Source: an uncultured cyanobacterium (lineage in GTDB: Bacteria; Cyanobacteriota; Cyanobacteriia; CAKZMO01). From it: DNA of 64,000 nt. The stretch lies in contig CAVRCJ010000003.1 in assembly GCA_963719515.1 (NCBI GenBank), positions 160,001 through 224,000 on the forward strand. Direction: 5' to 3'. A program made the position numbers and the translations under genes. Below the pieces are notes generated by a model. It saw only the letters and a program-made list of their open reading frames with translations. It made no database searches and was not told the origin of the DNA. Below, one piece after another: positions 25,633 to 27,839 of the stretch; positions within the stretch are counted from its first letter, which is position 1, and each line of letters begins with the position of its first letter.

Positions 25633-27839
25633 CTACCGCAAATTTAGCTCTCCGGTTTCCTGCAGGGCGTGGAGGCGGTGATAGATGCCGCCGCGATCTA
25701 ACAGCTGCTGGTGCGTTCCCACCTCGGCGATCGCCCCCTGGTCGAGCACCACAATCTTGTCGGCCTCCCGCACCGTGCTCAGGCGGTGGGCGATAATCAA
25801 GGTGGTGCGGGTGCGTGACATCCTCCCGACGCTGACAGCAAGCTGTACAGCGCGGGCTTCCTCAGTGACTCCCAGCTATTGCCGAGACATATCCTGAGAT
25901 AGGTTTATACTCCGCCTGATGCCCCACGGCAGAGTTTTGAATTTTCATCTCCGCGAGGGAGGATACGCACTATGTGTCGCAGATACATTTGCAAACTGAG
26001 GAACGGGTGACTTGCAGCTTTCGCCTACGGGCCCGTCACACTCTTTGCGGGGTGTATCACCTTGCTATCTCTATCATACCAACTGCTAGCCTCAGCGCTG
26101 AGCGCACTATCCGCTGTGCATCATTTTGCGGGCGCACTTCGGCTAGCGCGACTCTCATCCCGACGCACACCCTGACGGGTAGAGCGCGGGGCTTCCTGTC
26201 TAGTAGCTAAAATGCTGCCCATGGCCAGCTGAATCGCCCGCTCGGACTCGTAGTCCAAGCTAGAGGTGGCCTCGTCGAACACCAGCACATCGGGGTTGAC
26301 CAGCAGCGCCCGCGCAATGCCTAGCCGCTGCCGCTGGCCGCCCGACAGCCGCACCCCCCGCTCCCCCACCATGGTGCCGTAGCCCCGGGGCAGGCGGTGG
26401 ATGAAGTCGTCTACCCGGGCCACGCGGCAGGCTTCTTCTACGTCTTCTAAAGAAGCCTCGGGTCGCCCGTAGGTGAGGTTTTCTAGCAAGGTGCCGTTGA
26501 ACACGTCCACCTCCTGATGAACGATGGCCAGCCGTCTGCGGTAGCCCGTGATATCTAGGGTGCGGATATCTTGACCATCGATGCGGATGCCGCCCTGGTT
26601 GGGATTGAAATAGCGAAACAGCAGCTTCACCAGCGTAGACTTCCCCGAACCCGAGCGTCCCACTAGCGCCACGGTCTGGTAGGGCTCAATTAGCAGGTCG
26701 ATGCCTTTGAGGACGGGGCGCTCCTGCGCGTAGCCGAAGGTGAGGCGAGAAAACTCTAGCTTGCCGGTGAACTGGTATTGGGGAACGGCGGCGGGATCGT
26801 TGAGGCTAGCCGCATCCTCGCCCACGGGCTCTGCCATCAATTCGTGAAACCGCAGCATAGAGGCGTAGCGGCGGGCAAACACCTCGACAACCACGCTGAT
26901 GGGCTCTAGCTCCGAGTAGGCCATGCTGGAGATCGTCAGCGTCGTGACGAAATATCCCAGGGAGATCTGATTGTTGAGGGCCGCCACCAGCGTCAGCATC
27001 AAAATAGCAAACACGCAGCTTTGCACAAACGTTCGCTGCCAAGTAAACAGCACCACGTAGCCCCTATGGATACGATAGTTCACCATCTTAAACTCCCGCT
27101 GCAGCCGCTGCTGCTGGTGGGTCAGCTCTCGCTGTTCGGTGGCGAAGGCCTTTACGGTTTTGATATTGGTGACCACTTCGGCCATGCGGCTCTCGGTATT
27201 TTCGATGTGGTGGTCGAGCAGCGTCTCCTTGGTGATCAACCGCCGCAGGTGAGCCACAGTGAACCCCAGAATCAGGGTAAAAGAGACCAAAAACAGCAGG
27301 GCAATGCGCCACTCAATCCACCAAATTACCGCGAAGATACCGGCGATGCGAACGAGTTTGGGCACCAGCTGTCCCGCAACTTCGGGGTAGGTCCAGGTGT
27401 GGTTTGAGAGTCCTTTGGCGACGCGGCCCGCAATCCGCCCGGGATTGTTCTCATCGTAGAACTCCAAGGGCAGCGTCAAAATCTTCTCCATCACCCGCGC
27501 TGCTTGGTCCCGCCGCGATCGCAGGGGAATGTCCCAGTGGAACCAGGTGCTAATCCAGGGCTGTAGGGGGGCGCGCAGGACGGTGACCATAAACGTCAGG
27601 CCAAGCAGCACGATCAGTTCGGCGTTGGGGCTATTCTCGAGGCCCAGGGGAGCCGCGATCGCAACCAGTCCTCGGACTATCGCGTCCGTTGGCTGCTGAG
27701 ACAAGATGTTGAGAATTTGCCCCGTTGCATAGGGTATCAGCAGGTCAATAAGTTCGAAGACGCTGCTGGCTGCTATGCTGGCTATTCCCAAAGGCCAGTA
27801 TGGGCGAAAGTAGCTCAGCATATCTCGAAATGTAGCCAT
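25633..27839 (-). pseudogene. ABC exporter (TMD+NBD) interrupted by a 392-bp insertion
   Basis: GRSGSGKST, LSGGQRQR and FDEATSSLD lie in 26207-27839; the H-loop [11 protein letters not shown] lies in 25633-25814. Deleting 25815-26206 gives in-frame ...[15 protein letters not shown]... Confidence 0.9.
25815..26206 (-). mobile_element. Non-autonomous IS200/IS605-family element (PATE/MITE-like), no transposase
   Basis: Related subterminal imperfect hairpins in direct orientation (GGAAGCCC(C)GCGCT.TAC...GCGTCGGGA) at both ends; right end ...GGATGTCAC; inserted 3' of TTTAG; no target-site duplication or terminal inverted repeats. Confidence 0.85.

Follow-up and report, generated by a model that had tools for sequence, protein, structure and literature searches.

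A gene-less IS605-type mini-element with a putative TnpB guide-RNA scaffold interrupts an ABC transporter gene in an uncultured cyanobacterium

The window analysed here, a stretch of 64,000 nucleotides from the genome of an uncultured cyanobacterium (G000), contains an ABC transporter gene that is interrupted by a short mobile element, designated mini A. An earlier note, made from the letters alone, had placed a guide-RNA cassette at 25795..26081. The feature is real, but these coordinates proved too short, as the cassette is the 3' part of a 392-bp insertion (26206-25815). The element and its surroundings, in the direction of the interrupted gene, are as follows.

26207..27839, minus strand: ABC transporter gene, 5' part, with an MsbA-like fold (below every family cut-off shown), interrupted by mini A.
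26207..26211, minus strand: insertion motif TTTAG, host DNA and predicted TAM (motif before copies; TAM by analogy with ISDra2).
25815..26206, minus strand: mini A in full, a gene-less IS200/IS605 mini-element of 392 bp that duplicates no target sequence (the 53 copies share these boundaries).
26139..26206, minus strand: left end with subterminal hairpin 26190-26159, predicted TnpA site (similarity to resident tnpB elements; DNA fold).
26082..26138, minus strand: spacer between left end and promoter, with a predicted hairpin (fold; alignment, a similar stretch occurring in minis C and D of G000).
26073..26081, minus strand: extended -10 promoter-like site TGGTATGAT, with its key bases conserved in G011 and G010; predicted start near 26066.
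25936..26066, minus strand: leader, about 130 nt, dissimilar to local tnpB (BLAST, tblastx, homologs, Rfam); its parts are a 5' GGU/ACC hairpin (26065-26049), a conserved core (26046-25980) and a CUCC/GGAG hairpin (25961-25949).
25909..25935, minus strand: omegaRNA stem 1, lengthened form (covariation; layout as in ISDra2).
25923-25919 with 25821-25817, minus strand: pseudoknot between the stem-1 loop GGCAU and AUGUC (covariation).
25860..25908, minus strand: linker and omegaRNA stems 2 and 3, CUCAG 25898-25894 pairing with CUGAG 25865-25861 (fold and covariation).
25815..25859, minus strand: right end, with subterminal hairpin 25856-25825 (omegaRNA stem 4) and terminal GTCAC (similarity to tnpB elements; covariation).
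25795..25814, minus strand: predicted guide, 16-20 nt of host DNA directly beyond the right end (placed as in published TnpB systems; differs in every copy).
25633..25814, minus strand: ABC transporter gene, severed 3' part of about 60 codons with the AHRL switch motif (continuous in relatives).

A BLAST search of the genome recovered 53 full-length copies of mini A at 96.7-100% identity; 38 alignment columns vary among them, 26 through a difference in a single copy. All 53 copies lie downstream of TTAG, and 47 of them downstream of TTTAG, a fixed motif of 4-5 bases being a feature of IS200/IS605 elements. The flanks of the 53 copies place a GTCAC terminus in every one and a target duplication in none. 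The termini CTAC and GTCAC are not inverted repeats, and palindromes lie near both of them (26190-26159 and 25856-25825), each a PATE feature. No reading frame is conserved across three variants of the element, and 392 bp is too short for a transposase. On sequence grounds, mini A has all of the PATE features that sequence could check.

The genome also holds 19 longer elements that carry both mini A ends, 16 with tnpB only and 3 with tnpA and tnpB. By BLAST, the left end of mini A is 94% identical to that of resident tnpB elements over 68 nt and its last 85 nt are 85-88% identical to theirs; across the two-ended elements, the left 68 nt mostly match at 93-94% and the right 85 nt at 85-88%. These tnpB elements likewise sit after TTAG, and 17 of the 19 retain an unbroken TnpB frame with all three RuvC motifs (VDVG, HEKL, RDHN), so that the cognate tnpB with the same right end, which the earlier note had suggested looking for, is present in this genome. 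One element (G000:C10:312171-313970) encodes an intact TnpA of 159 aa (NF033573, 128 bits, cut-off 55) adjoining a TnpB of 398 aa (NF040570, 298 bits, cut-off 100). TnpA from such intact IS605 copies is likely to move mini A. A further tnpA-tnpB copy (G000:C5:98448-100227) encodes a TnpB of 391 aa, seven residues shorter in a repeated RQLS stretch. A TnpB of 398 aa is also encoded at G000:C3:50666-51862. Besides the end type shared with mini A, at least 10 other tnpB end types occur in G000.

The reading frame of the ABC transporter 5' part continues into mini A and meets a stop at 26121. In two of three aligned relatives (G009 and G011) the gene is unbroken at the junction; in the third, G010, the alignment of the locus starts only beyond it. 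The empty allele that had been postulated is thus found in G009 and G011, where the gene runs uninterrupted. The interrupted allele, deprived of about 60 C-terminal residues including the switch motif, is probably inactive. Only 5 of the 53 mini A sites fall within an open frame of at least 200 codons, compared with 229 of 400 random TTTAG sites, which makes the window copy one of few that break a gene. Since the TTTAG target includes the stop codon TAG, it provides harmless landing sites; six of the 53 copies lie exactly behind the TAG stop of a long frame, as do 10 of 400 random TTTAG sites. At the interrupted gene itself, the right end of mini A supplies an ATG right after GGAGG, in frame with the severed 3' part (62-codon ORF, 25821-25633, minus strand). 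Chance, at 1 in 3, probably accounts for this arrangement, and the distance is unfavourable for ribosome binding. An IStron that splices itself out of the ABC gene was considered and rejected: IStrons, which combine a group I intron with IS605, follow a terminal G rule, and mini A ends in C and has no Rfam match at E <= 5.

The last ~121 nt of mini A are homologous to the 3' end of tnpB, and the 3' 121 nt of both fold alike (z = -3.75 for mini A, z = -4.15 for the tnpB end). Ends of tnpB were gathered from 251 genomes, 30 of which gave a match. From 31 scanned tnpB loci, two were left out for inserts or near-duplicate sequence and two because they were cut short, and the final alignment contained 33 sequences (27 tnpB ends and 6 gene-less elements). 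Under a model of four stems and a pseudoknot, 93.5% of cells in these sequences are paired, and 17 of 28 pairs show compensatory change; none of 500 shuffles scored as high, and slid controls reached 35-51%. The pseudoknot is 92.6% paired, with two pairs changed on both sides. The covariance comparison with TnpB omegaRNAs that had been proposed thus reveals a shared scaffold that covaries in 33 sequences. These data support the assignment of the last 121 nt of mini A as a TnpB omegaRNA scaffold with stems 1-4, ending at the right end.

The expectation of about 250 nt of structured RNA holds for this 3' portion, but not for the leader, which when folded alone is no better than shuffles (z = -0.74). 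Likewise, the description of a self-contained, protein-free guide-RNA cassette fits insofar as the element is mobile, contains no protein gene and bears a promoter-like site and an intact omegaRNA scaffold, although the omegaRNA proper is confined to the last ~121 nt. All of the motifs in the earlier note lie where it had put them. The GTGAC/GTCAC arms around GC-GAAA-GC lie at 26039-26035 and 26011-26007, and the CTCTGCC/GGCGGAG hairpin is present where it had been placed. The terminal GTCAC was said to be able to form a pseudoknot with the 5' GTGAC; this pairing is unsupported, and the pseudoknot that covaries uses the stem-1 loop. Both arms of a supposed 9-bp long-range helix, TTCCTCAGT (26003-25995) and ACTGAGGAA (25866-25858), are present, but their pairing is unsupported and not conserved. 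This helix has a pairing probability of 0.000; forcing it costs 5.7 kcal/mol, and it would disrupt the conserved stem 2, which is itself predicted with probability 0.99. Among 2000 shuffles, 6.6% contain a perfect inverted repeat of at least 9 bp. The TTCCTCAGT arm is kept in G010 and G011 and is absent from all 11 leader copies checked in four other genomes.

The predicted guides of the 53 copies were also compared with other sites in the genome. TTAG followed by a 10-nt guide match was found for 3 of the 53, when about 1 would be expected by chance (our own estimate), and a 12-nt match for none.

The extended -10 element TGGTATGAT lies at 26081-26073, as had been noted, and its key bases are kept in two relatives. 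Its counterparts are TGCTATACT in G011 and TGGTATAAT in G010; TG, TA and the last T are fixed, and the free bases vary. Leader homologs of other families have a similar -10 site immediately upstream. The pattern occurs in 2.9% of 2000 shuffles, a figure to be read with the fact that we made the pattern ourselves and fitted it after the site was seen. A strict sigma-70 scan made no call at this site because it requires a -35 hexamer. At a 0.05 word share, three metatranscriptome runs yielded short contigs of related elements at 80% likeness. One of these extends into the promoter region, a DNA origin is possible, and the contigs reveal neither RNA ends nor strand; they were given no weight as evidence of transcription. 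Mini A is likely to be transcribed from its own predicted promoter.

Between this site and the scaffold lies the leader, for which no BLAST match was found in the resident tnpB elements. A small ORF or captured coding fragment was rejected, as no frame is kept in three variants and the best tblastx match has E = 0.3. Rfam gave no match at E <= 5 for the window region and nine sub-threshold matches, none informative, for 11 related loci. A search of 151 genomes with a sequence model of the leader found it in G345, G499, G466 and G494. With a refined model, 14 matches were obtained in 7 of 150 genomes, G551 being new, although six of the seven genomes had contributed to building the model; in G000 it gave 53 matches, equal to the number of mini A copies. 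The resulting homologs (G345, G499, G466, G494, G551, G010 and G011) represent four other cyanobacterial families besides that of the host, and every homolog examined resides in a gene-less element. A match of the leader model in G016 was discarded, as it is not an element. Elsewhere, the leader-bearing elements include eight copies of 426 bp in G499, which follow TTAG, and elements of 419 bp in G345 and 416 bp in G466. Four of these genomes combine the leader with a different scaffold, in which the loop and 3' end again pair (GGCGU/ACGUC).

In the leader core, a GAY/GUC stem encloses a small GGC/GCY hairpin, and CCCGU follows. In seven sequences 41 of the core's 69 columns are invariant, unpaired stretches included. 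Covariation is confined to 1 of 14 predicted pairs, and the sequences do not preserve the GAAA loop. By this comparison, conservation of the leader lies mostly in its sequence, and its fold is tentative. Its 5' motifs are partly shared with mini family B. The cyanobacterial boxA (PMC8461337), in the form given there, was tried as a candidate and does not match the mini A leader. A 16-base motif scan of genome contigs returned 98 loci, and among the 80 listed 3 are real mini-elements and the others chance-like; a 20-base scan of metagenome contigs returned 2 loci, neither inside such an element; and a gapped leader pattern matched no viral contig and only 5 mini-B copies in 401 genomes, though its gap was too short for mini A, on which these negatives have no bearing.

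The scaffold covariance model was then applied to one large family, in which it matched 41 of 61 genomes. Among 41 matches examined by tblastn, tnpB adjoins none of the 23 of 121-126 nt and 17 of the 18 others. By eye, about 15 of the 23 long matches display the layout of left end, promoter-like site, leader and scaffold, and three (L255, L261 and L282) have lost promoter and leader. In 28 gene-less elements taken alone, 98.6% of cells are paired and 5 of 9 stem-1 pairs are compensatory, but the pairing is inflated, since 23 of the 28 were selected for the length of their match to a model that itself scores these stems. The remaining five, and the G011 copy, were found by BLAST and have the same form of stem 1 and linker. 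The pseudoknot is 99.3% paired in the 28, with a switch from A-U to G-C in two sequences. The spacer from pseudoknot loop to stem 2 measures 18-20 nt in all 28 gene-less elements, against 10-16 nt in every one of the 27 tnpB ends. Mini A and the resident tnpB follow this division (20 versus 14 nt) and differ in stem 1 and linker. In the draft genome of G011 (93% complete), the scaffold model matched the mini only. A lengthened stem 1 and linker is, in these alignments, typical of gene-less copies.

Further gene-less IS605-type families of the same layout occur in G000: mini D (G000:C3:610786-611236, 18 copies), mini B (G000:C10:332124-332545, 6 copies, after TTAA) and mini C (G000:C1:7104-7546, 1 found by end pattern). 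Minis C and D have a common leader motif, different from that of minis A and B, which also occurs in G084 (L175). The scaffolds of minis B, C and D have no close match to any resident tnpB end. Other gene-less elements have leaders unrelated to that of mini A. One type, widespread in other cyanobacteria, combines a covarying stem with a boxA-like motif that lies about 231 nt upstream of the right end (L271, L272, L274, L275, L277, L278, L283, L286, L262, L008 and L152). The boxA pattern as given in PMC8461337 falls within the leader of 11 of 28 gene-less loci, and 7 of 20 pairs covary in the fold of this type. Such a motif may recruit Nus factors to a non-coding transcript. At L273, L280, L284, L287 and L288 there is a further leader type, whose reverse strand resembles, by eye, the frame of an ankyrin-repeat fragment; if that frame is real, this leader would be captured DNA.

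Taken together, these observations make it probable that mini A is a PATE-like gene-less mini-transposon, likely moved by TnpA and likely transcribing a guide RNA for the resident TnpB. We infer transcription, TnpB loading, trimming, cleavage and the role of the leader along the following lines. A transcript would start near 26066 and, with a leader of 130 nt, a scaffold of 121 nt and 16-20 nt of flank, reach about 270 nt. TnpB made by other copies would bind the scaffold and probably trim off the leader, as the account in PMC10278001 indicates for other TnpBs. After excision, TnpB would cut chromosome copies at TTTAG followed by a guide match, and recombination with a copy that bears the element would restore mini A, in keeping with the model as outlined in PMC8612924 and 10.1101/2023.03.14.532601. 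The leader most likely replaces the missing translated tnpB message, acting at the 5' end to shield the RNA and allow folding of the scaffold until TnpB arrives. This protective or folding role is the weakest step of the mechanism. In addition, the differences between mini A and resident tnpB in stem 1 and linker leave the fit to the resident TnpB uncertain.

TnpA needs only terminal hairpins, and mini A could accordingly be a passenger whose end hairpins suffice for mobility, with promoter, leader and scaffold as leftovers that TnpB never uses. Minis B, C and D have spread without a closely matching resident tnpB end, which counts against the guide-RNA reading and in favour of a passenger; core-deleted copies exist in other genomes, and the 53 copies differ too little among themselves to reveal selection on their own. 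The guide-RNA reading is further weakened by the G011 draft, in which the scaffold model matched the mini only, by the loss of promoter and leader from three of the 23 long matches, and by the weak predicted structure of the leader. However, stem 1 and the pseudoknot are kept although TnpA needs only the end hairpins, which points to selection on the RNA. The compensatory changes there among gene-less elements, the 18-20 nt spacer that separates all 28 of them from the 27 tnpB-overlapping scaffolds, and the retention of leader and promoter across five families make a mere passenger unlikely. It is also improbable that the long RNA serves a different partner or purpose, loading another TnpB lineage or acting as a TnpB decoy, with no cutting of the empty site by the resident enzyme. 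The alike remodelling of the scaffold across gene-less elements, the joining of one leader to two scaffold types, the at least 10 other tnpB end types in G000, and the prospect that RNA from 53 copies could outnumber tnpB messages would all be consistent with such a role. Yet mini A matches the resident tnpB end at 85-88% over its last 85 nt and agrees with that element in target motif and at both ends, the guide-positioning pseudoknot is intact, and no alternative partner was found.

An active role of the leader as an RNA device appears highly improbable; in that case it would cleave itself or work as a switch, and so free or gate the guide RNA, for instance through the 9-bp helix with its disruption of stem 2. 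In favour of this, the core is conserved even where it is unpaired, with 41 of 69 columns invariant, G010 and G011 retain the 9-nt arm, and AmaTnpB, as reported in PMC10278001, offers a precedent in the inhibitory pairing of tnpB message with scaffold. Against this, the leader has no Rfam match and does not retain its GAAA loop, the 9-bp helix is energetically costly with an arm absent from homologs in other families, and by eye the leader is unlike hammerhead or HDV layouts.

If mini A works as a guide-RNA source for the resident TnpB, it would be a clean natural test of a published idea for which the accounts consulted describe no experiment, namely that gene-less PATEs are parasites of both TnpA and TnpB. 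One nuclease, 53 guides and known empty alleles make a direct experiment possible. The gene-less form of stem 1 and linker would be a natural redesign of the TnpB guide, freed from coding, from which guide engineering might benefit. The leader, a conserved RNA, has no Rfam match, and no description of it was found in literature surveyed largely at abstract level. A bolder and rather doubtful possibility is that these elements form a distinct cyanobacterial class of guide-RNA-only transposons, their RNA rebuilt for existence without its gene, with their own promoter, an exchangeable conserved leader as a new functional RNA module for maturation, stability or TnpB capture, and a longer stem 1 by which this RNA out-competes the native guide. 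Were that class real, a single genome would supply one shared nuclease with a library of more than 50 natural guides.

Much of this picture has precedents. PATEs, PATE omegaRNAs for use in trans and stand-alone omegaRNAs acting in trans are all already published, as far as the sources cited here set them out. PATEs were defined in Haloquadratum walsbyi (PMC3119063), and the PATE VNG_R0052 of Halobacterium is transcribed (PMC4615843). In the features that these accounts list, mini A is similar: it has near-terminal palindromes, no terminal inverted repeats and no target duplication, is too short for a transposase, and forms a homogeneous high-copy family. The archaeal elements are described there in part as fused ends that remained after a core was deleted, whereas the interior of mini A is no deletion product of the local IS605. 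Closer still are the PATEs of Geobacillus stearothermophilus (Meers et al., 10.1101/2023.03.14.532601), which 'often encode omegaRNAs' for use in trans. According to the available text they too have no protein gene, share IS605 ends with the tnpA/tnpB elements of the genome, and are proposed to act in trans and to be retained via cutting of the empty site; that same text, in the part available, includes no internal promoter, leader, altered stem 1 or test of PATE RNA.

Stand-alone omegaRNAs of OMEGA systems function in trans (Altae-Tran et al. 2021, via PMC10691335), and by that summary they resemble mini A in being mobilised without effector or transposase, with the effector elsewhere in the genome. 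The mini A scaffold differs in being TnpB-type, with a 3' guide and a 130-nt front segment. The OMEGA stand-alone RNAs are reportedly mainly IscB RNAs with a 5' guide. A HEARO or IscB omegaRNA was rejected for mini A, given the lack of an Rfam match and the homology of the scaffold to tnpB 3' ends. In literature surveyed largely at abstract level, we found no description of the promoter-leader-omegaRNA layout in cyanobacteria, nor of a leader of about 130 nt restricted to gene-less elements or of the lengthened stem 1 and linker.

For TnpB itself, an IS607 enzyme is stated to work with omegaRNA expressed in trans (10.1101/2022.10.12.511977, 10.1101/2023.11.20.567912), and TnpB is reported to trim its RNA on the 5' side (PMC10097598, PMC10278001). 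The best structural guide is ISDra2, for which the sources consulted give a TAM equal to the insertion motif (PMC8612924) and an omegaRNA whose bases -6 to -2 pair with the stem-1 loop (PMC10097598). As described in PMC10097598 and PMC8612924, the ISDra2 RNA shares with mini A four stems, a loop-to-end pseudoknot, a length of about 120 nt and a guide taken from the flank. It overlaps tnpB and has a removable, coding 5' part, whereas the 5' part of mini A is a conserved non-coding leader; mini A further differs from the ISDra2 described there in its longer stem 1 and in its target motif, TTTAG.
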